32,000 nucleotides of DNA from Candidatus Omnitrophota bacterium (GCA_023818895.1 JAMWCX010000002.1:30001-62000); one strand, 5' to 3'. Counted from the first letter of the stretch, positions 1 to 17,320 are shown. Program-made: numbers and translations. The notes: generated from the letters alone by a model not told the origin.

Positions 1-45
1 CCCATGCCCACTACAATCTTTACCACGTTGATCAAAAATGTTGGG

Positions 46-927
46 CTATTCCTCCGCCGTCACAGATGCCCCATCGCGCAGCTTCTGCTGGCCCATAATT
101 ACAACCGACTCTCCGACTTTAAGACCATCTATGACCTCGACATAGGCCCCCCGACGCGCGCCAAGCCTTACCTGCCGTAAACGCGCCTTGCCGTCCTCCA
201 CCACATAAACATAAAAAGGCTCGATGCGCCCAATCACGGCCTCTTTGAGGATGGCTGGATTCTGCCTGTGTTCCTCGATGATAAGACTAACTTTCGCGAA
301 CATGCCGGACTGAAGCCGGTGGTCCGGATTATCGATGACTATCTCGATAGGGGCGCTGCGCGTCTGCAAATCAATCACAGGGCTTATATTTTGAACATAT
401 CCGAGAAACTCTTCTTTTGGATAGGCGTCAACTCTGACTATCGCTTTCTGTCCTATCCGTATGCTGGGAAGATAGGTCTCCGGCACTTTAAGATATATCT
501 CCGCCTTGTCCATATCAGCAACGAGCGCTATAGGTGTCTGCATCGTTACACTTGATCCGATATCGACGTATATACGTCCTATCCTGCCGCTAAGCGGCGC
601 CTCAACAGGTGCCTTTTCGAATTTCAAGCCAACCTCATCCCGGTCGATATACGCTATCGGATCGCCTTTAGCAACAGTATCGCCTTCCTCTTTGACTTTT
701 TCTATTATTTTTCCGGTCACCTTAGGATATACAATAGCCTCATCCTGCCCCTTTATATCGCCAACGTACTCAAGTGTTCTCGAAACGTCTTCCAGCGACA
801 CCTTCATAACCTTTACCGGCATGGCCTCATTGCCAGCTTTAGTCTGCCGTCCTTTTTCGCAACCGCTTGTACCAACCGCTATTATGCATAAGCATATTAT
901 ATAAACGATACTGCGCTTCCGCTTCAT
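46..927 (-). CDS. efflux transporter periplasmic adaptor subunit (HlyD/MFP family), probable lipoprotein
   Basis: 293-aa ORF with an N-terminal hydrophobic signal ending in a Cys (AVGTSGC). Body resembles membrane-fusion adaptors (KVMKVSLEDV..., GDPIAYIDRDEV, GMFAKVSL, FYVYVVEDGKARLRQVRLG). AGGAG RBS precedes ATG at 927. It follows a TolC-like gene by 10 nt. Confidence 0.8.
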   Translation of the reverse strand: MKRKRSIVYIICLCIIAVGTSGCEKGRQTKAGNEAMPVKVMKVSLEDVSRTLEYVGDIKGQDEAIVYPKVTGKIIEKVKEEGDTVAKGDPIAYIDRDEVGLKFEKAPVEAPLSGRIGRIYVDIGSSVTMQTPIALVADMDKAEIYLKVPETYLPSIRIGQKAIVRVDAYPKEEFLGYVQNISPVIDLQTRSAPIEIVIDNPDHRLQSGMFAKVSLIIEEHRQNPAILKEAVIGRIEPFYVYVVEDGKARLRQVRLGARRGAYVEVIDGLKVGESVVIMGQQKLRDGASVTAEE

Positions 928-937
928 AACATTTCTC

Positions 938-2527
938 CTACTCTATCTTTATATTGTCGTATATTAGAGTCATGCCTTCGGCCAAGGCAAGTTCGGCGAT
1001 GGCCTTATTGTATTCTATGACGGCCTCGGCATAGCTAACCTCTGCTCGCGCCAACTTCTCCTGATAATCTATTATGTCGTGCGTGGAAACAAGCCCCGCT
1101 CTGAATCTCGCTTCTTGCGCCTCGTAATTCTTCTGTTCGGCATCCCTGTTCTTGATGCTTGCCTCAAGCATCCTGTATCTAATATCAACTTCGCGCACGG
1201 CGCTCCTCACTTCAAGTATTATCTTCTGCTCCATCCTCTTGAAAGCAAGCAGCGCCTGCTGTTTCTCAAGCTTAGATTTCTGATACTTACCCTTGGCATC
1301 ATCATTTCCAAGCGGCACCGTAACGCTTACGCCTACCTTCCAGTCATTATACATACCGCTACCCAGTATGCCCATGTCTTTCTCAAAGTTCTTAGCCAGG
1401 CCGTTATAGCCCCAACTTCCGACTAAATCTACGATCGGAAGCATGCCGTTCTTATTGTAGATAACGGTGATATCCTTGTTCTTCAAGTCTATCTTCGCCG
1501 CCTCGTAGTCCGGCCTGTGGCTGAAGGCCTTATCAAGTGAGTCTATACTATCAAGCTCTTTCTTCTCATACGCAAGCGCATCTAAGGGCTCAATATTGGC
1601 GCTCCACAATTCCACATCATTGACAAGGTTTGTGATGAATTTAAGGTTATCCTCAGCAAGTTTCATAACTCCTTCGGCGCCCGCGACCGCTTTTTCGAAA
1701 CGGGCGACTTCCGCTTCGGATTGCAAGAGATCCACATTCGATGCTATTCCTTTGGCATATTTTTCCTTGTTGATATTATACAGGTCCTCAACGCGCTTGA
1801 GCGAAACCACAGCCGTCTGGTACTGCGCACGGCTGTACTGGAAATCATAATAGGCCTTCTTCACGTCTGTAAGCGTCTTCATGACATCTTTCTTGAATTC
1901 CTGGATAGATTTTAGCTTATTGTTCTTCGCGATCAAAAAGTCCGCCTGAGTTACAACTATGCCGCCTCCTCTCATAAGGGGCTGTGTAACCGTTACCGCC
2001 GCAAAAGAGTCGAAGGTTGGATTTATAGCCTGAAAGAAAGGATCATAATTGGAACGGGTTCTTGTGGTATTGAAATCGAGAGCTATTTTAGTTCCGCTTA
2101 TAAGCGCTTGATCGTATCCGAAGTTTATTACGCTGGTCCTGACCTTGGTCGGATTCGGACCGAAAAGCGGCCGGTCACTGTTATCGGTATTATCCTCCAT
2201 CTCAAAATCAAACGAAAAGCTTGGATCGAACTTACCCGATGCCGTCTTAACGTTAGCATCCTCTATCTTAGGGGCGATACTCCTTATTAAGATTTCGGAA
2301 TTATTTTTAAGAGCCATGGCAACACAATCTACCATTGCTATTCTGAGGATTTTAGTTTTTTCCATTGAGGCTATATATGCGCCTTTGTCAAACCCCTCCC
2401 CAACCCCTCCTCTTTCGCGCTCACAACAAGATAGCGCCAAAGGGCCAAAAGGCCGCATCTCTTCAGCAGCCGCAAGTGCCGGAAATATAAATATAATGAT
2501 GATGAGAAATCCTAATGCCCTTTTCAT
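938..2527 (-). CDS. TolC-family outer-membrane efflux protein
   Basis: 529-aa ORF with a signal peptide (FIFPALAAAEE). It has the two-repeat coiled-coil/beta organisation and residue patterns of outer-membrane efflux proteins (ALKNNSEILI..., AYYDFQYSRAQYQ..., EARFRAGLVSTHDIIDYQ). Its ATG overlaps the MarR stop (ATGA). Confidence 0.8.
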   Translation of the reverse strand: MKRALGFLIIIIFIFPALAAAEEMRPFGPLALSCCERERGGVGEGFDKGAYIASMEKTKILRIAMVDCVAMALKNNSEILIRSIAPKIEDANVKTASGKFDPSFSFDFEMEDNTDNSDRPLFGPNPTKVRTSVINFGYDQALISGTKIALDFNTTRTRSNYDPFFQAINPTFDSFAAVTVTQPLMRGGGIVVTQADFLIAKNNKLKSIQEFKKDVMKTLTDVKKAYYDFQYSRAQYQTAVVSLKRVEDLYNINKEKYAKGIASNVDLLQSEAEVARFEKAVAGAEGVMKLAEDNLKFITNLVNDVELWSANIEPLDALAYEKKELDSIDSLDKAFSHRPDYEAAKIDLKNKDITVIYNKNGMLPIVDLVGSWGYNGLAKNFEKDMGILGSGMYNDWKVGVSVTVPLGNDDAKGKYQKSKLEKQQALLAFKRMEQKIILEVRSAVREVDIRYRMLEASIKNRDAEQKNYEAQEARFRAGLVSTHDIIDYQEKLARAEVSYAEAVIEYNKAIAELALAEGMTLIYDNIKIE

Positions 2528-2982
2528 TTTGCGCTTTCCTCTTGACCTTCCACATGCTCTTTTATATGGGTTAGTATTTTAAGGTATTCCTCACGCTCTC
2601 TCTGCGATATACCACTGAATATCTTTATGGTGGCCTGTTTACGCGCTTCCATAATATCCTTTACGGTAGATATCCCTTTCGCTGTTAGTTTCACCATTAC
2701 CACCCGCCGATCTCTTGGGTCGCTGGTACGCACTATATAGCCGTCCCTCACAAGTCTATCCACTATGCCCGTTACTGCAGCGGTTGACACATCCATAAAT
2801 TCAGCTATGTCTGACATCTTGGACTCATCCCGCCTGCTGAGAAACTCGAGGACAAAAAACTGCGGCATTGTAATTTTCATCTTGTAAAAATTTCCGACAT
2901 GCCTCCTCATGTATTCTTTCATGAGGGCAGGCATTATCTCCATAACGGCATCTGCAAATTCAGATATATCTAGGTAGGTCAT
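2524..2982 (-). CDS. MarR-family transcriptional regulator
   Basis: 152 aa with a winged-helix signature (MSDIAEFMDVSTAAVTGIVDRLVRDGYIVRTSDPRDRRVVMVKLTAKG). AGGAGG RBS upstream of ATG 2982. It is the first gene of the efflux operon. Confidence 0.85.
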   Translation of the reverse strand: MTYLDISEFADAVMEIMPALMKEYMRRHVGNFYKMKITMPQFFVLEFLSRRDESKMSDIAEFMDVSTAAVTGIVDRLVRDGYIVRTSDPRDRRVVMVKLTAKGISTVKDIMEARKQATIKIFSGISQREREEYLKILTHIKEHVEGQEESAK

Positions 2983-3028
2983 TGTTAAGCCTCCTTATGT
3001 TTAATAATATTAAATATTTACATTGTTA

Positions 3029-3057
3029 AATATACCATATAAAAAAAGACCCGTCAA
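3029..3057 (-). promoter_or_regulatory. sigma70-like promoter with downstream AT-rich dyad (candidate MarR operator)
   Basis: Minus strand reads TTGACG (3057-3052), 17 nt, TATATT (3034-3029). Between the -10 and the RBS lie a dyad AATATT-N-AATATT (3006-3018) and a direct repeat TTAAATAT (3010-3017 and 3026-3033). Confidence 0.4.
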
Positions 3058-3085
3058 GGTCCTTTTCAATAAAATCTTTCCTGTC

Positions 3086-3493
3086 TTATCGAGGGAGATT
3101 ATACCAGTTTATAGAAGCCTCGGCAAGGGATATCGGCCTTCCGGACTCTTTTGCAAACTGGCGCCTATAAAGCATTATAGCCTCAAGCTCATCGTAAAAC
3201 TTACGAGCAAAATCTAATGGGCTATGGAGAAACTCCACCCCTATTGTATATACACCTATTGTATCGTCGTGTTCTACGTGCACCACTCTTGCCCTCAGAA
3301 AGAAAATCTCCCCTTTCATAGATATCTTTATTATAAGCCTTGATCCTGTTTCCAACCGCTTGTCGGTCGAGATTAGTGCGCCGCCCTCGCACAGATTCAG
3401 TGTTATGGAGCTGCCCGCCGGGGCGTCATTTTCACATCTATATTCGATAGGGCAATATATTGGGTATCTTGGAAACCGTCTTCTTTCAACCAT
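3086..3493 (-). CDS. PilZ-domain protein (putative c-di-GMP receptor)
   Basis: N-terminal RRRFPR (RxxxR) motif followed about 30 aa later by NLCEGGALI (D/NxSxxG-like). The beta-barrel-like remainder is typical of PilZ. The ORF track starts at a GTG (3502). I prefer ATG 3493, which has GAAGGTGG 5 nt upstream. Confidence 0.7.
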   Translation of the reverse strand: MVERRRFPRYPIYCPIEYRCENDAPAGSSITLNLCEGGALISTDKRLETGSRLIIKISMKGEIFFLRARVVHVEHDDTIGVYTIGVEFLHSPLDFARKFYDELEAIMLYRRQFAKESGRPISLAEASINWYNLPR

Positions 3494-3520
3494 CTTTACC
3501 ACCTTCTTCGATCACAAATT

Positions 3521-3547
3521 AAAAATGCCTGGCAAGCCGCCAGGCAT
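3521..3547 (-). terminator. rho-independent terminator-type hairpin
   Basis: Perfect 9-bp stem (3525-3533 pairs with 3539-3547; ATGCCTGGC/GCCAGGCAT) with a 5-nt loop. On the minus strand it is followed by UUUUAAUUU. It lies 100 nt after the receiver-gene stop and 31 nt before the PilZ ATG. Confidence 0.6.
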
Positions 3548-3647
3548 ATATTCTTCGTGTCTGTTTGCTTACCATATTAATATATCATATTATGCTACCA
3601 TCGACAAGGCTTCATTTCCTAGTTTTTTATCTCTAACGGGCCTCTGG

Positions 3648-4013
3648 TCATCCGATATATTTTTTGACTAAACCCAACACGCCTTCCATACTTACAGGTT
3701 TTATGATATAGTCATCAGCGCCTAGCTTCCCTGCGTCAAAGGCATACTCGGTATCGCTTTTCGCGGTAATTATTATTACCGGTATGTGCGACAACCTCGG
3801 GTCGGTCTTAAGCCGCGAAAGAGCCTCGAAGCCATTCAGCTTAGGCATCACCAGATCCAAAAATATAAGAGCTGGCGCTTCCTTGGCTGCTTTCTCTATT
3901 CCATCATTGCCATTATGAGCGGATATAACCTCGTATCCATTTGCCTCAAGTCTCATCTTTATGGCATCTACAAAATCAAATTCATCGTCTATTACCAGCA
4001 CCTTCTTGTTCAT
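3648..4013 (-). CDS. single-domain response regulator (CheY-like receiver)
   Basis: 121 aa with an acidic pocket (VIDDEFDF), a phospho-acceptor context (IFLDLVMPKLNG), conserved T/S (IITAKSD) and Lys (YIIKP). No output domain. Its ATG overlaps the upstream stop. Confidence 0.9.
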   Translation of the reverse strand: MNKKVLVIDDEFDFVDAIKMRLEANGYEVISAHNGNDGIEKAAKEAPALIFLDLVMPKLNGFEALSRLKTDPRLSHIPVIIITAKSDTEYAFDAGKLGADDYIIKPVSMEGVLGLVKKYIG

Positions 4014-4735
4014 CTCATCTTTCTCCTTATCCTGCGGCCGGATATAGCCGCATAAATCTCATCTTTATCCACGACCCTGAAGCGCCCTTCTTTAAGGCCT
4101 TCCAAAGTCAAAGCCCCTATTCTTATACGTAATAGATCCACAACATCAAATCCAAGTTCCTCAAAAAGCCTCCTTAAATGCCTCTTCTTACCCTCGCATA
4201 CTATCACTCTTATCTTCGATATCGCTTTATCGGCATGCTCTATATAAGCCTGCTTTACCTTCAAAAAATCATCGCCCTCCCTCACGCCTCGCCTAATTGC
4301 CGCCAGACCCTTATCATCAACGAAGCCCTTAACGCTAACAAGATACTCTTTTTCGACTTCGAATTTTGGATGCGTGAGGCGGTAACAGGCCTCACCGTCG
4401 TTAGTAAGTATTATAAGGCCACGTGAAGGCTTATCGAGCCTGCCTACAGGATAAACCCTTCCGAATCTTTTCGGTATAAAATCTACTATCTTGGACTCGG
4501 CAAACTGGTCCTCAAGCGTAACGGTAACCCCTTTAGGCTTATTAAAGACCAGATACACGCTTTTTTCCAGGCGTAAAATCCTGCCCCTCGCTTTCACTGT
4601 ATCGTCGGTTCCGACTCTGAACCAAGGCTCGGTTACAACCTTTCCGTTTACCGTAACAGCGCCTTCTTTCACAAGTAAAGCGGCATCCCTGCGCGAGCAT
4701 AAACCACTTTTAGCAATGAATACATTCAAATTCAT
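4010..4735 (-). CDS. pseudouridine synthase, RsuA/RluB/RluE/RluF family, with N-terminal S4 domain
   Basis: S4 RNA-binding N-terminus (LNVFIAKSGLCSRRDAALLVKEGAVTVNG) and a catalytic-Asp motif (GRLDKPSRGLIILTNDGE). The specific rRNA target cannot be assigned. Confidence 0.85.
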   Translation of the reverse strand: MNLNVFIAKSGLCSRRDAALLVKEGAVTVNGKVVTEPWFRVGTDDTVKARGRILRLEKSVYLVFNKPKGVTVTLEDQFAESKIVDFIPKRFGRVYPVGRLDKPSRGLIILTNDGEACYRLTHPKFEVEKEYLVSVKGFVDDKGLAAIRRGVREGDDFLKVKQAYIEHADKAISKIRVIVCEGKKRHLRRLFEELGFDVVDLLRIRIGALTLEGLKEGRFRVVDKDEIYAAISGRRIRRKMR

Positions 4736-7050
4736 AATGCCGCTCTTCTGGTCTTAGCGCTCATAGCAAGGACTGCTAGAATCGTCACATTGAGTATGGC
4801 CAACATGAAGCATGTGCTAGGAATACCTATAATAGGTATCAATAATGTGCCTGTTATAAGCGCCCCAATACATGAACCCGCCAGCTCCATTCCGTATGTC
4901 ATACCGGCGACACGGCCTACGGACGATTCCTTATCAAGTAGTATATTGTTCGCGACCGGAAAGAGGAATCCGCCGATAGCGCCAGACAAAAAAGGTAGAA
5001 TCGTAAATACAATATCCGTCCCAACCCATGATGAAATATTCCCAATGGCAGTCGTCAGGTGCCCAAAAAGCCACGGCAAAAGCAAAGCGAATAAAAATAG
5101 CAAGGCCGGCACCACCATCAGGGCATTTTCTCCACTTCGTAGCTTCGGCGTGACTCGCGTCCCAAGCCATCCTCCTGTAGCAAGACCTGTCATATAGGCG
5201 GTAATTATAATCCCCAATTTATAGAATAGGTAGCCGTAAAGAATCTGGAAGGCAAGCAGTATTATTATCTGAAAGGTCATCTGGCTAAAACCGTTAACTG
5301 CCACGGTAGGAATCACGCTCCTTGCAAAGTCTTCTTTTTTTCTTGTCCCCACCAATCCAAAGACCAATATCAAACAGCAACCACATATTGCAAAAAGCCA
5401 TATAAACTTTGCCGTAATCGCTTTGAGGAAAGCGCTGAATAGCGAACCTTTAAACCGCGTAGTCCAGAACAATATATCGTAATAGTATGAGATAGGATAA
5501 AAATCCGAGTTTATACGGCTGCCCAAAGAGGCGGACTTTATTGTGTTATCCGTATAAGAGATATTCTGCGGCGACAACCTCGAAAAAAGGTAGTATTCCC
5601 TCACATACTTAAGGTCAAGGTTTCTTAATTTAGCCCTCTGCATGAGAATATTGAAGTCATAGGTAAGGCTGCTATTATCGTCAGATGCCAGGAAGTAGGA
5701 AGTCTCTCCTGGCAATACCTTCACTTCGCCGAAAACCGACTTCAGAGTGGCATATATGGAACCGAGAAACTCGGCAAGTTCCCTGCCTATATAGCTTTCG
5801 GATGAGGAAAGGCCTAAGGATAAAAGCCCTCCTTTCTTCATGACGGCCTTTGCCTCCTTGAAAAACTCAAGTGTATAGAACCTGTTTATCTGAGCGGTAG
5901 AGGGGGCGCCAAGGTTCACGATAATTACGTCGTATCTTGCTGCAGATGTGGTCTTTATGTAATATCTCGCGTCCATGAATATCGTTGACACTCTTTCGTC
6001 ATCGAGCGCTTTTTTATATTCGACGGGGAGATGTTGCTGGGCCAACTTAACGATAAGAGGGTCTAACTCTATGTAATCGATCTTCGCCAGGGAGTGACGC
6101 GCTATCTCCTCCAATAGGCCCCCCACCCCTCCGCCTATAAGGAGGACCACTTGAGGAGCTGGATGCTCTAAAAGCGCAAAGTGAGCAGCCTCTTCCGAAG
6201 CCTGTTTGTCCGGCACTGTATAAAGATGAAGGCCGTTGTTGAAAAAGGAAAGCTGGTTGCCTCTTTTTACAATAGCGACATTGCCATAGATAGAGTTTTT
6301 GGACGAAATTAGCTCGTAACCGGGCCACTGGGCCTTTGAAAGGTACAAGTCAACATGAGAGAAGCCATCATAAACAAACGCGATAATGATAAAGATAAGG
6401 AAAACAAGTGCCGGCAATGCCACGTATATGCGAAATTTTTCCTCTTTCGAGGACAAAATCAGGGCGATTGCCGCGCCCACCAAAAGCAGGCTTAAGACAG
6501 CCATTATCTGCATCGAAACCATCATGGGAATTAAAAAAAAGCTTGTGACGAGGCCGCCGACCATAGCTCCTATCGCCTCAAGAACATACACAGCGCCTGA
6601 GGCAATCGCCCCGCTTGGGCGCAGTGACCCATAAAGACGACACGCCAAAGCAAACATGAAGCCCAAAAGCATGCAGATCGGCGCAAGGATGAGGAAGGAC
6701 ATTATCATCACAGGAAAAAGTGGGATGGTTTCGCCCGGATTTACTCCGAGAAAAGTCTTCAGCGACCTTATAAAGAAGACAGCAAAAGGAAGAGCCGCGG
6801 CGAGGGCAAGCTGGCATAATGAAAAGATAAAAGCCTTATGTCTAATGCGGTCTGATAGCCGGCCAAGAAGGGCACTTCCTATGGCGCCTGTTATAAGCCA
6901 ACCTGCCAGTATGAAAGCGATGGAGAGTTCGTTACCGTAAAAAACCAAAAGGAACTCGCGCATCAGCACTATCTGTGATGCCATCGCAATAAAGCCGATA
7001 AGTATTATAGATAGGATCGAGCTCTTCTCGAAGCGCTTTTTATCGGTCAT
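4732..7050 (-). CDS. polytopic membrane protein fused to a spermidine-synthase-like (SpeE-fold) domain
   Basis: 772 aa. There are about 7 hydrophobic helices N-terminally and several more C-terminally. The central segment aligns by eye with SpeE (VVLLIGGGVGGLLEEI...IDYIELDP...RYDVIIVNLGAPSTAQINRFYTLEFF). Confidence 0.75.
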   Translation of the reverse strand: MTDKKRFEKSSILSIILIGFIAMASQIVLMREFLLVFYGNELSIAFILAGWLITGAIGSALLGRLSDRIRHKAFIFSLCQLALAAALPFAVFFIRSLKTFLGVNPGETIPLFPVMIMSFLILAPICMLLGFMFALACRLYGSLRPSGAIASGAVYVLEAIGAMVGGLVTSFFLIPMMVSMQIMAVLSLLLVGAAIALILSSKEEKFRIYVALPALVFLIFIIIAFVYDGFSHVDLYLSKAQWPGYELISSKNSIYGNVAIVKRGNQLSFFNNGLHLYTVPDKQASEEAAHFALLEHPAPQVVLLIGGGVGGLLEEIARHSLAKIDYIELDPLIVKLAQQHLPVEYKKALDDERVSTIFMDARYYIKTTSAARYDVIIVNLGAPSTAQINRFYTLEFFKEAKAVMKKGGLLSLGLSSSESYIGRELAEFLGSIYATLKSVFGEVKVLPGETSYFLASDDNSSLTYDFNILMQRAKLRNLDLKYVREYYLFSRLSPQNISYTDNTIKSASLGSRINSDFYPISYYYDILFWTTRFKGSLFSAFLKAITAKFIWLFAICGCCLILVFGLVGTRKKEDFARSVIPTVAVNGFSQMTFQIIILLAFQILYGYLFYKLGIIITAYMTGLATGGWLGTRVTPKLRSGENALMVVPALLFLFALLLPWLFGHLTTAIGNISSWVGTDIVFTILPFLSGAIGGFLFPVANNILLDKESSVGRVAGMTYGMELAGSCIGALITGTLLIPIIGIPSTCFMLAILNVTILAVLAMSAKTRRAAL

Positions 7051-7067
7051 TGATTATGCTTCGCTTT

Positions 7068-7742
7068 CTATGTTCCGTAACGGCTGAAAATAATCCCAAC
7101 CCCTAGCAACATTAAAAGAATAGCGCACATTACCTTGAAGAAGGTCAAGACAATTTGAGATCTGATGGTCTTCTGGATCACTTCTTTAAGAATGCCAACG
7201 ATAGCGCCAACCGTTATAAGACCTGATAGGAAAGTGCCGAGGCCGAAAGATAATGCATACAGAGCGCCGTCATATGAACCTTTTGACATAAGGGCGATTT
7301 CAAATAGAAGCGCGGCGAGCGGAACGCAAGGACTAATGCCGATCAGAAAGCCCAAAGCCAACAGCCCCCCAAAACCAGAGACCTTAGTATAGGCGGCGCC
7401 GAATGCGCATTGCGAGGATGACGGCTTGCGGACCAGAATAGTAATGCCAAGTACTATACTTACAACACCCGCAATAGATTTAAATACATAGTCAAGATTT
7501 GACTGTGTAAATTTTCTCAATAAGGCGCCTGAAGCCCCAGCGATTGCGCCAAGTATTACATAGGCGGATAACCTACCGGTCAGGAATATGAGAATATCTA
7601 TTAATGTCCGGTGCCATTGCTCCCTTTTTCCAAGAATATACGTAACCAGGATAGGCGCACAGACCAAAAAGCATGGGCCAACTACCCCGAAACTGAAGCC
7701 AATGCCGAAAATCTGGAGGTGAGTAATGAGGGTGTTAAACAT
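7068..7742 (-). CDS. DsbD/CcdA-superfamily integral membrane protein (putative transmembrane thiol-disulfide/electron-transfer protein)
   Basis: 224 aa with about 6 TM helices. Cys residues are embedded in TM1 (VVGPCFLVCAP) and a central TM (LIGISPCVPLAALL), as in CcdA/DsbD_2-type proteins. The assignment rests on topology and Cys placement only. Confidence 0.5.
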   Translation of the reverse strand: MFNTLITHLQIFGIGFSFGVVGPCFLVCAPILVTYILGKREQWHRTLIDILIFLTGRLSAYVILGAIAGASGALLRKFTQSNLDYVFKSIAGVVSIVLGITILVRKPSSSQCAFGAAYTKVSGFGGLLALGFLIGISPCVPLAALLFEIALMSKGSYDGALYALSFGLGTFLSGLITVGAIVGILKEVIQKTIRSQIVLTFFKVMCAILLMLLGVGIIFSRYGT

Positions 7743-7784
7743 TTTCCTTTATAATATTTAACGGAACGGAACGAATACGACGCA

Positions 7785-7804
7785 AAAAGTTATGCATAAT
7801 TTTT
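7785..7804. promoter_or_regulatory. 20-nt loop-less palindrome, candidate dimeric-regulator binding site
   Basis: AAAAGTTATG|CATAATTTTT matches 9 of 10 positions per half-site with no spacer. It is centred about 52 nt upstream of the ATG of the DsbD-like gene. Confidence 0.3.
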
Positions 7805-7848
7805 GGATGTGGGGGTATATTACACCTCTGCGGCGCTATTTTCCTTAT

Positions 7849-8955
7849 CTACTTTTCCCATATACCGGCGATTTTATACCCACAATATGCGCACTTGCCA
7901 TCTTTAAGGCCATTCGGCCGCGTGGTATAGCCGAGCCGCTCTATTACCATCTTACCACAATTCGGGCAGTATGTGTTTTCATGTGGATTGCCGGGAACAT
8001 TGCCTATGTAAACGTAATTCAATCCGGCATCTTTGGCTATTTTATACGCCTCTTCGAGTTTCTCCGCCGGCGTAGGAGGAAGGTTCTGAAGCCTGAATGC
8101 GGGCATGAAACGGCTGAAATGGAGGGGCACGTCTTCTCCGAGATTATCCTTTATCCATCTGCACATCTTCCTTATCTCTTCCGGACTATCGTTCTGGCCC
8201 GGGATCAGGAGGTTGGTTATCTCAAGCCAGACGCCTTCCTCCTTTACAATTTTAAGCGTATCGAGGACAGGCTGAAGCTCTGCATCCGCGTTCATCCTCC
8301 TGTAAAATTCCGGATTGAAGCTTTTCAGGTCGACATTCACGGCGTCCATGTACTTGAGGAGTTCTCTGAGAGGCTCGGGATTTATGTACCCACAGGTGTG
8401 CATGCAGTTCTTAAGGCCGCCTTGCCTGGCGAGCTTCGCCGTATCGAGCATGTATTCATAAAAGACGGTTGGCTCGGTATATGTATAGGATATAAACGGA
8501 GAGGCTGCCTTTATAGCGTCTTCCACAACTTTTTCAGGAGGAAGATCGTAGGCAGCAACGTCATCCGGCCGTGCCTGTGATATCTGCCAGTTCTGGCAAA
8601 ATAGGCATCGCATATTGCAACCTGCGGTAGCGATTGAAAATGCAGTTGTGCCGGGATAGACGTGAAAGAAAGGCTTCTTTTCGATGGGATCAACGTGAAC
8701 CGCCACCGGATTTCCGTATCCGAGCGTATAGAGAAGCCCGTCACGGTTTTCGCGGACTGTACATATCCCCCTCTGACTGGGCGCGAGCACACACCGGCGG
8801 GGACACAGGATGCATTGGACTATCTTGCCTTTTACAATATTCCAGTAGCTTGCAACACGGGGCAAAGCCTTTGAGGATTGGTAGGAATAAATGATCTCCG
8901 AACAAAGAGATGCCCCAAGGATCGCAATAAAGGAAACTGTTAGTAATTTTTTCAT
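7849..8955 (-). CDS. AmmeMemoRadiSam-type radical SAM enzyme (PflA-like activase fold) with N-terminal hydrophobic signal-anchor
   Basis: Cx3Cx2C cluster motif (CNMRCLFCQNW) and an upstream Cys-rich segment (CILCPRRCVLAPSQRGICTVRENRDG). It also has HVDPIEKKPFFH and a C-terminal CxxC...CxxC ribbon (YCPNCG...GKCAYCG). All of these are characteristic of this family as I remember it. The first 25 aa (MKKLLTVSFIAILGASLCSEIIY) form a hydrophobic helix. Confidence 0.8.
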   Translation of the reverse strand: MKKLLTVSFIAILGASLCSEIIYSYQSSKALPRVASYWNIVKGKIVQCILCPRRCVLAPSQRGICTVRENRDGLLYTLGYGNPVAVHVDPIEKKPFFHVYPGTTAFSIATAGCNMRCLFCQNWQISQARPDDVAAYDLPPEKVVEDAIKAASPFISYTYTEPTVFYEYMLDTAKLARQGGLKNCMHTCGYINPEPLRELLKYMDAVNVDLKSFNPEFYRRMNADAELQPVLDTLKIVKEEGVWLEITNLLIPGQNDSPEEIRKMCRWIKDNLGEDVPLHFSRFMPAFRLQNLPPTPAEKLEEAYKIAKDAGLNYVYIGNVPGNPHENTYCPNCGKMVIERLGYTTRPNGLKDGKCAYCGYKIAGIWEK

Positions 8956-8988
8956 TTATGCGGCAGCGCCGTCATAAACTGACCGTCG

Positions 8989-11850
8989 TCACTCCCTACT
9001 CCATGTTCCGATAGCTGAACCCTCAAAGGTGCCAGAAGGCGTAACGTTATCGATGGTATTAATCACACCCGATGCTACACCCGTTATATTTCTAGAAACA
9101 AGATCGGCATCGACCACGGTTCCGCTAACGTTTGCCTGCCAAGTATTGCCATCCCATTGTGTGCCGGTCAGCGTAATGGAGGAAGCCGGATTTGTTAACA
9201 GATTTTCCACAACTACTGACCACAGAGCCCCGCCTCCAGAGAAATCTCCGGATATATGGGCTGCCCAGACACCGTTAGATGCACCTGCGATCGTCTCATA
9301 AAGGCGCATGTCCATGAAGACGTTTGTAATACTGCCGGCTCCTCCGCTGAAATAGCCGTTTCCTGTCAATGATATGCTTGCCGCCTCTGTTATGGGGACC
9401 GAGATCCAACCGTTATTGTATACATTCTGCACCTGGGATGTTATCGTAGCCATGTCCTGAATGACCGTATTATCATATACCTCAGCCCATTCGCCGCAAC
9501 CGACCGCTTGCCATGTGCCTGTTTGGCCGGGATCCACATCTACGTAATTTCCAAGGACCCTTCCTTCTCGCAGAGCGAAGACCTTAATACAGCCGTCCTC
9601 CGAAAGGGAAAGAGAAAAACCTTCACTCTCGCCACTAAGCCCGTTAGCGCCCCAATTAGCGATTGAAAGATACTGCATCCATACGCCGTCTTTAAACTCG
9701 TCGTCTTCACTAGTCCCTGCCAACTGCATCACCCATCCGCCTAAAACATCTCTATACGAACCAGCAAAACGCGATGCCCAAATACCCCATCCCGGCTCCG
9801 GTGAAAGATCGAACGAGGCCGCAAAACCATCAACCAGTCTGGCTGTCACCTCAGAACCGTCGCCAAGATCAGCATATCCTTTACCAGAGAGACTGCCGTT
9901 GTCTTTTATAGATGTATAAAGCTCTTCCGGCAATATACCAAAAGGATCACCGCTATGTGAAGCCGTTGAATAGACCTGATGGACCCAGAAAGATGAGCCC
10001 TGATCCAGCGTAAAAGCGGTTGTATTATCACCTTCCGCCTTGCCGAAGAGCGTCCCCGCATTGCCAGCCGAATCCACATATAGTCCTATTGCCAGCATTT
10101 TTATAAGGCCGCCAACACCTCCGTCTATCGTTCCTCCCATAACACAATAATATGCTCCGCCGTCAGAAGTTGTATATGCCGCCGTGTTGCTATCATAGCT
10201 AAAAAGGTCATCCGTCGTCCATATGTGATATTGCCCGCTACTATCGGCGGCATCATAATTTCCTGACAACATGACCTCAACCGGATAATATTCCGAGGTA
10301 GCCGTCCATAATAAAGTATAATCGTTAGGGTCGTTTATGTCGGGACCTTCCGCGCTGAAGTCATACATGCCGCCACCGTCGTTGACAAGGTAAGGGTCAC
10401 CTTGGGCATCGAGTGATGCGTAAAAAAAGTCACCAACTTTGTCGATGTGCTGAACCTCATCTGTAACCTGATCTAATATGCTCGAATCGGCCTCCGTGAT
10501 AGGGACGTTAACCACATCGGTATCAACGGTATCGGACTCAGAAGTGTCAACTGTATCGGTTAAACTGGCAATCTCGCTTGCCACACCTCCGGCAAGACCC
10601 GCATCCGCCAGTGCGCTACCATCCGTTCCCCCGTCAGCATCACTGGTCCCGCCGCTCGGATCGAACCCTTCGTCCATAGCAGCGCGGTCTTCTTCGCTCG
10701 GTGCCTCAGTCTGCGTTATAGAACCGGTAGAATCGACGGTTGTGCCACCGCCGGCACCGACCTCCATAGTTTCGCCTGTGACGAGGCTGGTTGCATAACC
10801 GTTACCACCTTCGAAAAATGAGCTTGTCGCACCATTCGCCGCTATATGTACCAGCATGATGGTCCCGCGCGCGCCACAGATGGCCGTCGGGGTCTTGACC
10901 TCGAATTTTGATTTTCCTTTAAGCCCTTCTATTCGAGCCTTAACTCCGCCGCGCTCCGCCTCAAACAAATTCTCAAACTCGCCGGTTTTAGAATCGACGA
11001 CGAGCTTCAATATCGTAATATGTGTGTCGGGCTTAAGGTAAAGGGCATTGCCGTTATCGAAGGCTATCTCGACAATCCCATTCGAGCCAGTTGTAACCTT
11101 ATCACCCTCGCCCAGAACCTCGCCCTGTCTGGCCTGGTGAGGCTCTGCTACACCCCTGCTAGTAACCTTGACATCGCCGGTCAGTTTCGTGATGGTTCCC
11201 TTTATGGAAGATGCGCCTTTCCTTGCCGCTATAGTCTCCGGTATATTTGTGTCCTGCTCGTGAAACTTAAGTTCCATGTCCATGTATCTGCGTGGCCCCT
11301 TCGGCGCGTCTTCAAGCGGGATAACAACCGCGCTTCCGGCGGGGACGCTGACAACTTCCTGCGGCTTTAAATTATTGGACACAGAAAGGATCCCTTCTTC
11401 GACCAGCATGCCGCTGTTTCCGGCCTGATAGTATGCGAATATGTCCGACCCTTTAACGACACCGGTGGAATTAGGCGTCGATATCCTGAACTCAGAAGAG
11501 TCTTTCATCTTGGCTATGATGGTTCTGAATTTGCCCCTTTCAAGCCTTAATTCCGCGCTCTTCCTATTATTATGCTGGTCGAGAGTATAATCCAATATAT
11601 CGACTTTCGAATTCTGCGCTATCCTCATAACCGTTCTATCCGCAAAAATCACTTCCGCCTTGGAATTGGACTTGGTCCTGATGGAATCACCCACATTGAT
11701 GAGTGCACCATCAACTGCGGGAGTACCTTTATCGGAACCTGAGGTAAATATATCGACCCTGCCTTCCGTATAGGTAATCTTACCAACTTCAGCAGCCATT
11801 GCAGCTGAAGCAAGGGCGACGATAAAAACATAAATGAGAAGTGTCCGCAT
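8989..11850 (-). CDS. large secreted protein with two N-terminal FecR domains and a C-terminal domain of unknown function
   Basis: I prefer the start at ATG 11850 (MRTLLIYVFIVALASAAMA|AEV, a Sec signal with AGGAGG RBS) over the ORF-track start at 11910, which overlaps the upstream gene. There are two FecR-like modules (GKITYTEGRVDI...GDSIRTKSNSKAEVIFADRTVMRIAQNSKV and GTITKLTGDVKV...GDKVTTGSNGIVEIAFDNGNALYLKPDTHI). An acidic D/T/S/G linker follows, then about 480 aa rich in G/S/T/D/W/Y. Confidence 0.75.
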   Translation of the reverse strand: MRTLLIYVFIVALASAAMAAEVGKITYTEGRVDIFTSGSDKGTPAVDGALINVGDSIRTKSNSKAEVIFADRTVMRIAQNSKVDILDYTLDQHNNRKSAELRLERGKFRTIIAKMKDSSEFRISTPNSTGVVKGSDIFAYYQAGNSGMLVEEGILSVSNNLKPQEVVSVPAGSAVVIPLEDAPKGPRRYMDMELKFHEQDTNIPETIAARKGASSIKGTITKLTGDVKVTSRGVAEPHQARQGEVLGEGDKVTTGSNGIVEIAFDNGNALYLKPDTHITILKLVVDSKTGEFENLFEAERGGVKARIEGLKGKSKFEVKTPTAICGARGTIMLVHIAANGATSSFFEGGNGYATSLVTGETMEVGAGGGTTVDSTGSITQTEAPSEEDRAAMDEGFDPSGGTSDADGGTDGSALADAGLAGGVASEIASLTDTVDTSESDTVDTDVVNVPITEADSSILDQVTDEVQHIDKVGDFFYASLDAQGDPYLVNDGGGMYDFSAEGPDINDPNDYTLLWTATSEYYPVEVMLSGNYDAADSSGQYHIWTTDDLFSYDSNTAAYTTSDGGAYYCVMGGTIDGGVGGLIKMLAIGLYVDSAGNAGTLFGKAEGDNTTAFTLDQGSSFWVHQVYSTASHSGDPFGILPEELYTSIKDNGSLSGKGYADLGDGSEVTARLVDGFAASFDLSPEPGWGIWASRFAGSYRDVLGGWVMQLAGTSEDDEFKDGVWMQYLSIANWGANGLSGESEGFSLSLSEDGCIKVFALREGRVLGNYVDVDPGQTGTWQAVGCGEWAEVYDNTVIQDMATITSQVQNVYNNGWISVPITEAASISLTGNGYFSGGAGSITNVFMDMRLYETIAGASNGVWAAHISGDFSGGGALWSVVVENLLTNPASSITLTGTQWDGNTWQANVSGTVVDADLVSRNITGVASGVINTIDNVTPSGTFEGSAIGTWSRE

Positions 11851-11860
11851 TTTAAACCTC

Positions 11861-13399
11861 CTAAAATTTGAAATTGACGCCTGCGCTGTAAATGTTGCGC
11901 GTGTATTCATAGACGCTTATGTTGGAATCGTCCTGCACATGGGTATATTGAAGCCTGATCTCGGAGTCCTTGTAAAATTTATATGCGGCAAGAGCCGATA
12001 AGGTATAGACCTGGTCATGTCTGTAAACACCGTAAACAGAATTGGTCCTTGTGAAGTTCTCGAAAAACATATCACCTGAAACGGTGAGGTTTAGCTTGTC
12101 AAATTTTGGCAGAATTAGTGAGGAAGGAATAAGAAGGACAACGGTCGCCCTGTTGCCGATATAGTTCCAGTTATTTCCTTCGGTCCATTCACGATTAAGA
12201 CCATAACGCACGTTGAAGAAACCCCTATTCTTGTCGAAAAACATGTACCATGCAAGCGTACCCCCGAGATAATTCGATGTGCGGTTCTCCTGCGGTATGC
12301 TCGGCCCCCACAGGTAATCCTTATACTGGTAAAGCATTGTAAGTTGCCCCATATTCCAGTCGTTCAGCATATAGTTATAAACGCCGGCAGCCGAAGGCAT
12401 GGAAAGATATGCCTTGTCATTTACAAGGTAATGGTTGTAGCCGAGTGGAAATGACAACATGTGTCTTTCGCGAGTAAATGTCGGCTGGGCGATGAAGGAA
12501 TTGACGACGGTATCGTAGAATCCGAGGTCGTTCTGCTTCGCCCAGTAGAATGAATACTGCCCCCTCAGGCTGAACACGTCGTTGGCGCGCCACGTATATT
12601 CCGCCTGCGCGGTCGTGACCTCGCGGGAGTCGGCCTTATCGGAAATGCCGACCGCCAGAGTATCCTCGTTCGGCATCAGGACTACATTGTCATCATACTC
12701 CCACGCTATGCCGGCCTGAATCTTCAATGGCCTTGTTACTTCTTCGGTTCTGGCTATGGCGTTTATGTATTCATTGGCGTAATTCGCCATAGTGGAATTG
12801 GGGTCAGTTATTATGACCTGCTTGAACACCTCACGTGCCTCGCTGAATTTCTTAAGCCGGATATTGGCCATTCCGATCTGATAACTACAAGCCTGGCTCA
12901 TCGACGGATCTATCCGCTCAGCCTTTCTAAAGGATTCGATCGCTTCAGCTGGCTTGTCGCTTTTCATCAGGATCAGTCCTTTAAGGAATGCGACCTGCGC
13001 AGGCCGGATGTCTTGAGCTTCGGCTTCGGCTATCCATTTGTAGGCCTCCTCGAAATCGCCAGCCTGGCCGAGGCAGTCTATGAGCTCTACAAGCGCACCT
13101 TTGATCTTGGGCGAGTATGTCACGGCGTCCCGCAAATTTGGTATCGCGGACTTATAATCCTGCATTTTTTTATAGGTTAGGCCTGTATAATAAGCGGCGA
13201 TCGTAGAACGGGGCTGTTCCTGCCTGACTTTCTTTAAAAGCGCGAGGGCCTCTTCATAGTTTTCGTGCTTATATTGACCTATCGCCTTTTCAAGGACAGG
13301 ATTTGACTTCTCATTTTCCTGCGCACCAACAATAAGGTTCAATTGCAGAGCTATTATTACCGAAAAGCCGATTGTCACAAATGCTATACGTTTTAGCAT
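11861..13399 (-). CDS. outer-membrane protein with N-terminal TPR domain and C-terminal beta-barrel
   Basis: I prefer the start at ATG 13399 (MLKRIAFVTIGFSVIIALQLNLIVGAQE, GGAGG RBS). About 5-6 TPR-like helical pairs span roughly aa 30-225. About 14 alternating-hydrophobic strands follow, and the protein ends in the OMP-type terminus ...YSAGVNFKF. Confidence 0.7.
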   Translation of the reverse strand: MLKRIAFVTIGFSVIIALQLNLIVGAQENEKSNPVLEKAIGQYKHENYEEALALLKKVRQEQPRSTIAAYYTGLTYKKMQDYKSAIPNLRDAVTYSPKIKGALVELIDCLGQAGDFEEAYKWIAEAEAQDIRPAQVAFLKGLILMKSDKPAEAIESFRKAERIDPSMSQACSYQIGMANIRLKKFSEAREVFKQVIITDPNSTMANYANEYINAIARTEEVTRPLKIQAGIAWEYDDNVVLMPNEDTLAVGISDKADSREVTTAQAEYTWRANDVFSLRGQYSFYWAKQNDLGFYDTVVNSFIAQPTFTRERHMLSFPLGYNHYLVNDKAYLSMPSAAGVYNYMLNDWNMGQLTMLYQYKDYLWGPSIPQENRTSNYLGGTLAWYMFFDKNRGFFNVRYGLNREWTEGNNWNYIGNRATVVLLIPSSLILPKFDKLNLTVSGDMFFENFTRTNSVYGVYRHDQVYTLSALAAYKFYKDSEIRLQYTHVQDDSNISVYEYTRNIYSAGVNFKF

Positions 13400-13455
13400 T
13401 GGTGAATACCTCCATATAATAGTAGCTATTACATTTTTGGCTGGTAAGTTACGTA

Positions 13456-13485
13456 AGTATATCATAATATTTATAATGGTGTCAA
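13456..13485 (-). promoter_or_regulatory. sigma70-like promoter for the TPR-barrel gene and downstream genes
   Basis: Minus strand reads TTGACA (13485-13480), 18 nt, TATACT (13461-13456). It lies just downstream of the terminator at 13521-13557 and about 55 nt upstream of ATG 13399. Confidence 0.45.
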
Positions 13486-13520
13486 TTTTTTTCCTGATTT
13501 TTCTCTGCCTAACTAATATT

Positions 13521-13557
13521 AAAAAAGACGGCTTCCAACACGCACTGGAAGCCGTCT
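13521..13557 (-). terminator. rho-independent terminator
   Basis: Perfect 12-bp stem (13526-13537 pairs with 13546-13557; AGACGGCTTCCA/TGGAAGCCGTCT) with an 8-nt loop. A U5 run follows on the minus strand. It starts 24 nt after the YD-repeat gene stop. Confidence 0.8.
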
Positions 13558-13580
13558 CCATTCTTGCTTGGAACCTGTCT

Positions 13581-14561
13581 TTATTTCTGCTGTTGATCCT
13601 CTCTCAAAGGTTTCGGCTGCTCTGCCATAGTAGCCGTTACAGCGACATTGGTTGGTACCTGGTTCGCTTGAGTGGTAACAGTATCTTGCACAGCCATAGC
13701 GCCTTCTAAATCGGCATTAATTACCCTCTGTGCAGCTGGAGCAAGCGTTGGCGCGCTTGGCACATCTTCAATACCCTCATAAACGATCTGCTGGCGATCT
13801 ATCACGCCACCGCTTGAGTCGTAGGTTAAGATGGTCATCCGCGTGGGGTTTCCTGCAATACCGAAGGCCTCGTTGGTGATATTCTGGATAATAAGAAGGT
13901 CGCCGGCCGCATCGTAGGTCGAGACTTTCTGCTGGGTCACCCTGCCGTATTCGTCGACGGCCAGGTTCTCGGTCTGGATTTTTTGGGCGAGGTTTCCTTC
14001 AGCGTCGTATGTGTATACAACCTGAATCTGGTCAAGGGACGCAAGCTCATTATAGCCGTAGTGCGTGTAGTCATTTGAGATAACCTGCTTCTCCTTAAGA
14101 AGCTCGCCGTCTGCTGCATAAGAAAGAACTGTCATCCGGGTTGGCCTTCCGTATTCATCATAGGAGTCGTAGGTGATGAGCCTCCTTTCAAGAAGCTCGC
14201 CTTCAGGGGTATAATCGGCAATGGTTTTTTCCAGGACTCTTCCGAAGAAGTCGTATTTGACGGACTCCACGTTGGTGCCCATAGCCTCCGCCCTATTATT
14301 GAGGGTGGTGATCTTCTGGCTTATCACTCTACCCTGCTCATCCAATGCGATGTCGTCGAATATTTTGATGTCGATCAAGACTCGGTTACCCTTCTCATCG
14401 GTGTAGTAGTTGACATTTAAAAGAATCTTTGACATTCTCTGTCTCATCGCTTCCTCTACAGACGAAAGCCACCATTCATCATTTTCCTGAGCATTGAGAA
14501 TAGCCATTGCCGATGGAACAAGCATTGTTAATAATATCAGTATTATTATTTTTGCTTTCAT
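13581..14561 (-). CDS. small secreted YD(Rhs-type)-repeat protein
   Basis: Sec signal (MKAKIIILILLTMLVPSAMA) and GGAGG RBS. About 12 consecutive beta-hairpin repeats match the YD consensus (YTYDAEGNLAQK, STYDAAGDLLI, LTYDSSGGVIDR, YDEYGRPTRMT, VDEYGRVTQQK, SYAADGELLKEK, YTPEGELLERR). The C-terminal tail is P/A/Q/T-rich and low in complexity. Confidence 0.7.
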   Translation of the reverse strand: MKAKIIILILLTMLVPSAMAILNAQENDEWWLSSVEEAMRQRMSKILLNVNYYTDEKGNRVLIDIKIFDDIALDEQGRVISQKITTLNNRAEAMGTNVESVKYDFFGRVLEKTIADYTPEGELLERRLITYDSYDEYGRPTRMTVLSYAADGELLKEKQVISNDYTHYGYNELASLDQIQVVYTYDAEGNLAQKIQTENLAVDEYGRVTQQKVSTYDAAGDLLIIQNITNEAFGIAGNPTRMTILTYDSSGGVIDRQQIVYEGIEDVPSAPTLAPAAQRVINADLEGAMAVQDTVTTQANQVPTNVAVTATMAEQPKPLREDQQQK

Positions 14562-14726
14562 TTTATTTTCCTCCGCAAGTTTGGCACTTCTTAAATGTGA
14601 TTAGTAAATAGGCAAAAAAATTTTCCTTTCCAGATTTGCTATTTGCCTTTTTGTGGCCTCTACTATAAGATTACCTAATACTTAATATTTTGGCAACAAG
14701 ATATTTGTTACTTTTTAATATCTTAA

Positions 14727-16409: not shown

Positions 16410-16441
16410 AAAACTTAACTTTGCCTCACGCTATACGCTAT

Positions 16442-17311: not shown

Positions 17312-17320
17312 AACCTATTC

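Follow-up and report, generated by a model that had tools for sequence, protein, structure and literature searches.

One of the questions raised by a run of genes lying between two terminators is whether these genes carry out one function or are simply neighbours that are read together. In this paper we looked at such a block in a Candidatus Omnitrophota bacterium. The window, which is the whole stretch of DNA that was analysed, has 32,000 nt (GCA_023818895.1 JAMWCX010000002.1:30001-62000), and the block spans positions 3521-13557 and holds seven genes that a sequence-only reading took for a candidate envelope system. We compared about 100 related loci overall and find it probable that the block consists of two independent modules and two passenger genes brought side by side in this lineage, the second module (module B) being an extracytoplasmic variant of the AmmeMemoRadiSam system, which is named after AMMECR1, Memo and a radical S-adenosylmethionine (SAM) enzyme (rSAM). 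The genes, their coordinates and their gaps were reproduced by our open reading frame (ORF) calls, and the domain content proposed for each product was confirmed by Pfam and NCBIfam:

11861-13399, minus strand: gene of the TPR-barrel outer-membrane protein (OMP), ORF call; module A
8989-11850, minus strand: gene of the FecR-domain protein, ORF call; module A
7849-8955, minus strand: rSAM gene, ORF call; module B
7068-7742, minus strand: DsbD_2 gene, ORF call; module B
4732-7050, minus strand: gene of the SpeE-like membrane fusion protein, ORF call; module B
4010-4735, minus strand: pseudouridine synthase gene, ORF call; passenger
3648-4013, minus strand: CheY gene, ORF call; passenger

The gaps between them, from the OMP gene to the CheY gene, are 10, 33, 106, 17, -4 and -4 nt.

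The related loci were retrieved from both modules. Contigs encoding rSAM homologues that are 67-81% identical to the window rSAM gave eight loci in seven distinct places; the best of these homologues are proteins of Omnitrophota metagenome-assembled genomes (MAGs), and an exact look-up of the window rSAM returned no record. In all seven places the rSAM gene, the DsbD_2 gene and the gene of a 746-782 amino acid membrane protein with a Spermine_synth domain follow one another in this order. A second set (L009-L088) was obtained by scanning one genome per species with an alignment of the membrane protein and keeping the best-scoring 80 of 567 relatives. Neighbours were counted within 6 kb of the SpeE-like fusion gene, both for all 80 loci and for the 37 that are fully evaluable, with at least 3 kb upstream and 5.5 kb downstream:

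rSAM: 62 of 80 loci; 36 of 37 fully evaluable loci
DsbD_2: 24 of 80 loci; 13 of 37
Memo: 34 of 80 loci; 23 of 37
AMMECR1: 32 of 80 loci; 22 of 37
OMP: 0 of 80 loci; 0 of 37
FecR: 0 of 80 loci; 0 of 37
Pseudouridine synthase: 3 of 80 loci; 2 of 37
CheY: 4 of 80 loci; 3 of 37

In the reverse scan, metagenomes were searched with the barrel protein, which gave 10 loci (L089-L098). The FecR-domain gene lies directly downstream of the OMP gene in all six of these that have downstream sequence, and likewise in L006 and L007, two close relatives of the window locus. None of the six metagenome loci has an rSAM, DsbD_2 or SpeE-like fusion gene near the pair, with four of them reaching 4.5-9 kb further downstream. 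From the neighbour counts together with the occurrence of the OMP-FecR pair on its own, it follows that the block is made of module A, module B and two lineage-local passengers. Judging from these loci, the trio of rSAM, DsbD_2 and SpeE-like fusion is a unit conserved throughout Omnitrophota. The expectation that the seven families travel together thus holds for this trio and fails for the OMP, FecR, pseudouridine synthase and CheY genes.

The slot between RecJ and the rSAM gene holds a YD-like gene, the barrel gene and the FecR gene in the window, the barrel and FecR genes in L007, and a single unrelated ORF of 1439 amino acids in L009 (3778-8097), whose rSAM is 84% identical to that of the window, the highest rSAM identity seen. 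It is empty in L001, where the rSAM gene comes directly after RecJ, and in L011, L012, L016 and L019; L002, L004/L005 and L008 have unrelated flanks. On this comparison the slot is a variable insertion site, and the occupant of the L009 slot, together with the pair standing without the trio in the metagenome loci, speaks against the view that the barrel and FecR proteins belong to the same system as the trio. The YD-like gene in the slot of the window (13581-14561, minus strand) encodes a 326 amino acid secreted protein with weak YD/RHS-repeat matches.

One possible option is nevertheless that all seven genes make one pathway, in which the FecR protein is exported through the barrel and modified by the rSAM, with a reductant shuttle, a SAM-fold enzyme and phosphorelay control. 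The block itself lends this option some weight through its single promoter-like site, its two flanking terminators and its short or negative gaps. L006 and L007 keep the barrel-FecR-rSAM-DsbD_2-fusion-pseudouridine synthase order of the window, and the rSAM is predicted to reside outside the cytoplasm, where the FecR protein also is. Yet L006 and L007 are the only rSAM-retrieved loci in which the barrel and FecR genes precede the trio. The two genes are absent from L001, L002, L004, L008 and L009 as well as from all 80 fusion-gene loci, they are found as a pair alone, the CheY and pseudouridine synthase genes appear in 4 and 3 of the 80 loci, and the pseudouridine synthase is a cytoplasmic RNA enzyme. 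The seven-gene pathway is largely refuted by synteny and we regard it as very improbable.

What the boundaries of the block can tell is seen from its signals:

13524-13559, minus strand: intrinsic-terminator-like hairpin at the upstream boundary, 16-bp stem and T-run; -23.7 kcal/mol, z = -5.84
13456-13485, minus strand: sigma-70-like promoter candidate 5' of the OMP gene, TTGACA-18-TATACT with TG before the -10 element; 11/12 matches
7743-7848, minus strand: 106-nt spacer between the rSAM and DsbD_2 genes, no terminator and no significant fold (z = -0.72)
3525-3547, minus strand: terminator-like hairpin 3' of the CheY gene at the downstream boundary, 10-bp stem and T-run; z = -3.97

The two hairpins had been described as strong terminators, and they have the longest stems among the terminator-like sites in positions 1-18000, with 0 of 200 shuffles as good for either of them. 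The near-consensus promoter (13485-13456) is likewise the top match in 1-18000. By contrast, the suggestion that the 106-nt gap may split the block into two units found no sequence feature dividing there, neither a minus-strand terminator nor a significant fold, and the corresponding spacer is 3-113 nt long in the relatives. The block is probably read as a single transcript in this bacterium, since the gaps are short enough for its genes to share one. However, the whole window is transcribed one way, on the minus strand, with the seven block ORFs co-directional, and the upstream hairpin terminates the preceding YD-like gene, so that bracketing by terminators defines at most a transcription unit and not a functional system. 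The functional unit is here smaller than terminators and spacing had suggested. Neither Rfam families nor tRNAs were found in the window.

The identity of module B comes from its rSAM. This protein scores 385.4 bits with TIGR04337 against a cut-off of 220, its residues 36-367 matching positions 2-334 of the 349 in the model. TIGR04337 describes the rSAM of the AmmeMemoRadiSam system, alongside TIGR04335 (AMMECR1-type) and TIGR04336 (Memo-type), and related loci cluster Memo and AMMECR1 with the module B genes. Three Omnitrophota loci (L047, L052 and L055) carry Memo-AMMECR1, rSAM, DsbD_2 and SpeE-like fusion genes on one strand. In Acidobacteriota the fusion gene is convergent with a DUF362, rSAM and Memo-AMMECR1 run, and in Thermodesulfobacteriota a thioredoxin-like gene and the fusion gene are convergent with rSAM, AMMECR1 and Memo; in L065 the order is fusion, rSAM, Memo and AMMECR1. 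Altogether AMMECR1 is found in the related clusters L043-L045, L047/L052/L055 and L057-L088. The nearest characterised rSAM relatives are pyruvate formate-lyase activating enzyme and other glycyl-radical activases, from which the window rSAM differs in its score (71 bits with TIGR02493 against a cut-off of 232), in its localisation and in having no glycyl-radical enzyme nearby.

The AMMECR1/Memo/rSAM neighbourhood was first noted by Balaji and Aravind (2007; PMC2034487), where a cytoplasmic RNA-base modification was proposed, and 'Memo-Ammecr1 systems' are mentioned in PMC7159879. Module B differs from this system by the export signal on its rSAM and by two additional conserved membrane partners, DsbD_2 and the MFS/SpeE-like fusion; the window lacks Memo and AMMECR1, and the proposed RNA-base modification is at odds with an extracytoplasmic site. 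The known gene contexts of Memo were reportedly extended by Burroughs et al. in 2019. In the searchable literature, with that work, the likeliest to overlap, outside the comparison, we found AmmeMemoRadiSam linked neither to a membrane SpeE-like protein nor to DsbD_2 nor to export signals, no relevant pairing of AMMECR1 with spermidine synthase, and no term for a radical SAM enzyme that is periplasmic or exported. The statement that no described system has this composition is correct in part only: the rSAM is a recognised AmmeMemoRadiSam-family member, and related loci cluster the trio with Memo and AMMECR1.

Single polypeptides that join these components exist as well. P0302, P0303, P0305, P0306 and others combine rSAM, AMMECR1 and Memo in ~1000-1150 amino acids, and there are Memo-AMMECR1-rSAM (835 amino acids) and rSAM-Memo-AMMECR1 (838 amino acids) fusions. 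In L045 (8955-11799) two tandem AMMECR1-Memo pairs follow an rSAM with a twin-arginine translocation (Tat) signal; the first Memo, as read from its N-terminus, has no signal of its own and may hitch-hike on the rSAM for export. The gene directly upstream of the rSAM in 22 Acidobacteriota loci (among L057-L088; e.g. L058 15130-16200, minus strand) encodes a DUF362 protein, which has a twin-arginine signal (PNRREFLKTCAAG) and may belong to the exported system as another conserved component. In L058 (7898-9818), L057 and L068 the genes directly upstream of the SpeE-like fusion gene encode an NrfC-like polyferredoxin, which has a Tat-like signal, and an NrfD-like membrane subunit. As a general partner this NrfCD-like module was rejected, being found in these three closely related Acidobacteriota loci only.

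The second line of evidence is the export signal. As had been proposed for a signal-anchored rSAM, the window protein has an N-terminal extension of ~35 amino acids ahead of the TIGR04337 match, which looks like a Sec-type signal or anchor (MKKLLTVSFIAILGASLC...). Canonical twin-arginine signals are found on the fusion-adjacent rSAMs of Acidobacteriota, Thermodesulfobacteriota, Poribacteria, L065 and part of Omnitrophota, for example LDRRSFLKCALASGAALG...AWA and MSRREFLGNCAKYSLLF...AEA. Omnitrophota rSAMs with a DsbD_2 neighbour have mostly Sec-type signals ending in AxA, such as MKRVLSSVSILIFSAILAANLSFA before QE. The twin-arginine signal, of the RRxFLK type, is present in 32 of 37 rSAMs without a DsbD_2 neighbour by script (34 of 37 by eye) and in 4 of 29 with such a neighbour (5 of 29 by eye); the manual reading is given alongside because the script mislabels a few loci (e.g. 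L008, L009, L057 and L058). In the family at large, the 150 top representatives at 50% identity include 76 plain proteins of ~335 amino acids and ~34 with extensions of 40-100 amino acids, and ~26 of these 34 have twin-arginine motifs. Sec-type signal peptides stand at the start of the Memo-AMMECR1 fusion proteins as well, both in Acidobacteriota and in L047, L052 and L055.

The family representatives closest to the window rSAM are membrane fusions, among them:

DsbD_2 + rSAM: P0243 and P0258
DsbD_2 + FMN_bind + Fer4_5 + rSAM: P0249
FMN_bind + Fer4_5 + rSAM: P0245 and P0248

In the analysed fusions the rSAM comes either after a helix preceded by a K/R-rich segment or beyond a single positively charged N-terminal anchor, and in both cases it is predicted to be outside. 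The modules of P0245, P0248 and P0249 are of the kind found in NosR/NapH-type conduits with ApbE-flavinylated FMN_bind (PMC8238504), and such fusions suggest outward electron delivery, with the difference that the window itself has no such module. The term 'radical SAM' is absent from that survey of extracytosolic flavinylation (PMC8238504), and the contigs of P0245, P0248 and P0249 are too short for gene context of the NosR-like rSAM fusions. Two further near relatives of the window rSAM, P0244 (919 amino acids) and P0247 (681 amino acids), have an N-terminal anchor, then a Reg_prop/PorZ-like beta-propeller or a CBM_11 domain, and then the rSAM; these architectures are hints of a glycan or surface substrate.

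The third component is the SpeE-like membrane fusion protein, whose gene is divided as follows:

6367-7050, minus strand: residues 1-228, N-terminal membrane part; transmembrane helices (TM) 1-6 form a repeat unit and TM7 leads outward; helices at residues 2-226 in the AlphaFold2 (AF2) model
5416-6366, minus strand: residues 229-545, SpeE-like soluble domain, predicted periplasmic; PF01564, 84.6 bits
4732-5415, minus strand: residues 546-772 and stop, C-terminal membrane part; TM8 leads inward and TM9-14 form the second repeat; AF2 helices at residues 547-771

In the model (pLDDT 90.2, pTM 0.89) seven helices on each side flank the soluble domain. Residues 3-206 are homologous to residues 571-770 (hhalign probability 99%, E 5.6e-18), which pairs helices 1-6 with helices 9-14. 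The protein passes NF037959, 'fused MFS/spermidine synthase' (80 bits against a cut-off of 40), and three of its homologues have MFS_1 matches. The MFS-like nature of the membrane part rests on these matches and on the six-helix repeat, since a fold search in the Protein Data Bank (PDB) returned the SpeE domain only. Short loops of 55 homologues contain 22.1 K+R on the side of the termini and 3.4 on the side of the soluble domain, and this asymmetry predicts a periplasmic position for the SpeE-like domain, with helices 7 and 8 leading outward to it from a 6+6 core that is MFS-like. An NCBI Omnitrophica MAG has a partial copy of the protein (P0124) that is 100% identical, on a 3.5-kb contig with no further context.

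The soluble domain retains the SpeE fold, an N-terminal beta part and a Rossmann part, with Foldseek matches to 1UIR, 3O4F and 1INL (E ~1e-10 to 1e-12, target TM-score 0.70-0.77), and the acidic residues that bind ribose and adenine are kept (E328, D330 and D360). The catalytic positions differ. Where the Thermus thermophilus SpeE has GGGEG and D-L-T-D-P the window domain has GGGVGG and N-L-G-A-P, and in seven of seven aligned homologues the acidic position of GGG(D/E)G is taken by V, T, A or I. The family consensus is a non-acidic GGGxGG and x-L-G-D-P, the first Asp of D-x-x-D-P not being conserved; the second (residue 382, codon 5905-5907) is Asp in at least 90% of 73 homologues and Ala in the window. 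Further differences from SpeE are the insertion of the domain between two seven-helix bundles and its predicted periplasmic position. All SpeE equivalogs stay below their cut-offs (PRK03612 138 against 472, PRK00811 107 against 260, TIGR00417 84 against 250), and the Pfam domain model alone passes. The retained fold and binding residues, together with the lost catalytic Asp and the failed equivalogs, indicate that the domain is adenosyl-ligand-binding and not a canonical aminopropyltransferase, and 'spermidine synthase' is a misleading annotation for this membrane protein.

An alternative explanation is that the fusion is a genuine membrane-bound polyamine aminopropyltransferase or exporter, and that the trio makes or exports an envelope polyamine. 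Database names do include 'spermidine synthase', the SpeE fold is kept, Pfam Spermine_synth passes and PRK03612 matches residues 15-413. This explanation has to be set against scores far below every NCBIfam SpeE cut-off, against the loss of the GGG(D/E)G acidic residue in the seven aligned homologues and of both catalytic Asp in the window, and against a predicted position outside the cytoplasm, away from decarboxylated SAM. The constant partner of the fusion gene is moreover an rSAM and not SpeD or SpeA. We consider a polyamine function highly unlikely.

The remaining member of module B, the DsbD_2 protein, has six helices in a CcdA-like arrangement (PF13386, 77.3 bits). Pro-Cys motifs in TM1 and TM4 are the hallmark of CcdA and DsbD, and the protein has GPCxxxCxP in TM1 and PCxP in TM4, with C24 and C139 invariant in 27 orthologues. 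It differs from CcdA/DsbD in lying below the DsbD NCBIfam cut-off, in the extra CxxxC in TM1 and in having as its partner not a cytochrome c maturation or Dsb protein but an rSAM, to which it is joined in P0243 and P0258. The proposal that it serves the rSAM as a transmembrane helper gains support from these natural DsbD_2-rSAM fusions, one of which (P0243, in L101) is encoded by a gene overlapping the start of a 753 amino acid SpeE-like fusion gene. By hand its topology is predicted as N-out/C-out, which fits the attachment of the rSAM at the DsbD_2 C-terminus in the fusion proteins. No thioredoxin-like gene is found in the block; in L044 and L045 an anchored TlpA/AhpC-like (AhpC/TSA-Redoxin) thioredoxin adjoins the SpeE-like fusion gene.

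Another hypothesis for this protein, which leaves the rest of the interpretation unchanged, is that it transports a metal, a metalloid or another small solute, for instance iron for cluster assembly, and is not a thiol-disulfide conduit. Its best NCBIfam match is the ArsG efflux permease family (37.5 bits, below cut-off), metal could be bound by the extra CxxxC of TM1 and by a CxC loop that is frequent, and P0249 combines DsbD_2 with an electron module of the NosR-like kind, so that the part of electron wire cannot simply be given to DsbD_2. A sequence search of the PDB gave no meaningful match for the DsbD_2 protein. On the other side stand the two Pro-Cys motifs and the periplasmic thioredoxin-like protein that replaces DsbD_2 beside the fusion gene in L044 and L045. 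A transporter seems to us the less likely function, although one that deserves to be kept in mind.

When these components are put together, the best reading of module B on its protein sequences is a membrane-associated extracytoplasmic variant of the AMMECR1/Memo/radical-SAM system. Radical SAM enzymes are treated as strictly cytoplasmic, since they depend on SAM, on Fe-S clusters that are oxygen-labile and on a reductant of low potential. In a possible mechanism the rSAM would be exported by the Sec-like signal in the window and by Tat-type signals in most other lineages. The 6+6-helix MFS-like core would move a small molecule outward, most economically SAM or the substrate, and the periplasmic Rossmann domain of the fusion would bind an adenosyl compound beside the rSAM. 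The DsbD_2 cysteine pair would pass thiol-reducing power outward and keep the cysteine-rich exported enzyme or enzymes reduced; in other lineages fused NosR-like FMN/Fe-S modules would supply electrons instead, and a comparable function may fall to the NrfCD-like pair next to the fusion gene in three Acidobacteriota loci that are closely related. The substrate would presumably be an envelope lipid, glycan or protein. The complete pathway, in which a widespread Tat/Sec-exported clade receives SAM from an MFS-like exporter with a SpeE-like holder, is reduced through lineage-specific conduits (DsbD_2, NosR-like modules and possibly an NrfCD-like pair) and modifies an envelope component together with exported Memo and AMMECR1, is put forward tentatively, as a possibility that we would not yet favour in all its parts.

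Several points weigh against the assignment of module B and against this mechanism. The window rSAM begins with MKKLLTV, and its signal has KK and not RR, so that the Tat motif S/T-R-R-x-F-L-K is not present. We know of no established precedent for Sec export of an Fe-S enzyme, and to our knowledge SAM has been neither known nor shown to occur in the periplasm. No recognisable Shine-Dalgarno sequence is found in 8956-8990, before the rSAM ATG at 8955, and the start is supported solely by the signal-like extension that is conserved in the orthologues. The association of signal type with the DsbD_2 neighbour is confounded by phylogeny, the independent events being few. Transport by the fusion protein is putative, and the topologies are predictions based on hydropathy, the positive-inside rule and signal motifs. 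The Ala at the Asp382 position could mean that the window copy of the fusion is functionally degenerate or divergent. In the 32-kb window tblastn gave no match to AMMECR1 (at E<=1e-6) or Memo, so that as far as the window reaches this copy is an incomplete member of the system. As for the independence of the modules, A and B are likely to be co-transcribed here, given the gaps of 10 and 33 nt, and a local functional link is possible.

Some of these points would be removed if the trio faced the cytoplasm, where SAM, Fe-S assembly and low-potential reductants all are. The hydrophobic N-termini would then be mere tethers, and the rSAM and the SpeE-like domain would work on the cytoplasmic side of the membrane, with a lipid or a substrate prior to its export as their target. 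The window rSAM, with neither a twin-arginine pair nor a clear AxA cleavage site, is compatible with such an arrangement, and the outward topology is a prediction from hydropathy, charge and signal motifs. Nevertheless, orthologues in at least four phyla have canonical Tat motifs, the K+R asymmetry of 22.1 against 3.4 puts the SpeE-like domain outside, and the Memo-AMMECR1 proteins have signal peptides. In addition, the rSAM is fused to typically extracytoplasmic FMN_bind, CBM_11 and beta-propeller domains, always after an outward-going helix. Based on these features we judge a cytoplasmic trio improbable, and the extracytoplasmic variant remains our preferred reading.

A large clade of rSAMs with export signals, accompanied by conserved membrane partners that could plausibly supply cofactor and reductant, would challenge the strictly cytoplasmic view, and the proposal, if true, would bring radical SAM chemistry outside the cytoplasm for the first time. 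The AMMECR1/Memo/radical-SAM system would then be expected to have an envelope substrate, and the Memo and AMMECR1 families, whose eukaryotic homologues, MEMO1 and AMMECR1, are linked to disease, would gain a tractable bacterial context. Acidobacteriota include cultivated members, and the cluster, if present in a cultivated acidobacterial strain, would make the question experimentally testable.

Module A, which lies in the slot upstream of the trio, consists of two proteins. The OMP has a signal peptide, TPR helices at residues ~34-221 and a 14-stranded beta-barrel at residues 225-511 (AF2 model, pLDDT 89.6). TPR families score above cut-off, with TPR_Slam (23 bits against 35) and BBP2_2 (21 against 23.7) below. 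In the PDB fold search BcsC and PelB are the top matches spanning both the TPR and barrel parts, with low TM-scores of 0.3-0.46, and the barrel alone resembles OmpG. Like BcsC/PelB and Slam-type translocons, the OMP has a periplasmic TPR part followed by a C-terminal barrel and a likely cargo or partner gene next to it; it differs from them in falling below all family-specific cut-offs and in having no polysaccharide synthase nearby. The barrel of BcsC is 16-stranded, against 14 strands here.

The FecR protein is a secreted protein of 953 amino acids with FecR domains at residues 55-153 and ~209-338 and a long unassigned C-terminal region (PF04773, 89.8 bits). Its domains are most similar to the Leptospira surface proteins Lsa33 and LipL45, which are the closest families, both below cut-off. 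In relatives the FecR-domain partner is 931-2009 amino acids long. From the architecture and the adjacency of the genes, the barrel most likely docks, exports or anchors the large FecR-domain protein. A FecR-type anti-sigma factor was considered and rejected, as the window protein starts with a signal peptide and has two FecR domains only, and there is no ECF sigma factor or TonB-receptor gene among its neighbours. In L089 (6936-16555) a CHASE2-SpoIIE(PP2C) sensor precedes the barrel-FecR pair, whose FecR-domain protein has 2009 amino acids, and in L008 a small FecR protein (284 amino acids) and a BBP2_2 barrel (352 amino acids) occur with a GAF-HD set. The pairing of FecR and barrel may form a surface module linked to signalling.

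The two genes at the downstream end of the block are, by the neighbour counts, lineage-local neighbours outside the conserved module. The pseudouridine synthase is of the RsuA/RluF type, with S4 and PseudoU_synth_2 domains (TIGR00093, 145.8 bits), and is found downstream of the SpeE-like fusion gene only in L006, L007, L009, L012 and L016. The CheY protein is a stand-alone receiver (PF00072, 93.7 bits).

The flanks of the block are housekeeping or unrelated genes, with RecJ, a CDF transporter, SecDF, Tgt, QueA, RodA and PBP2 upstream. Downstream of the block (46-3502, minus strand) are PilZ and then MarR, an OEP outer-membrane factor and an HlyD-type adaptor. A PilZ-MarR-OEP run followed by an ACR_tran (RND-type) pump gene is kept in L001 and L007, an order-level synteny that is apparently unrelated to the trio.

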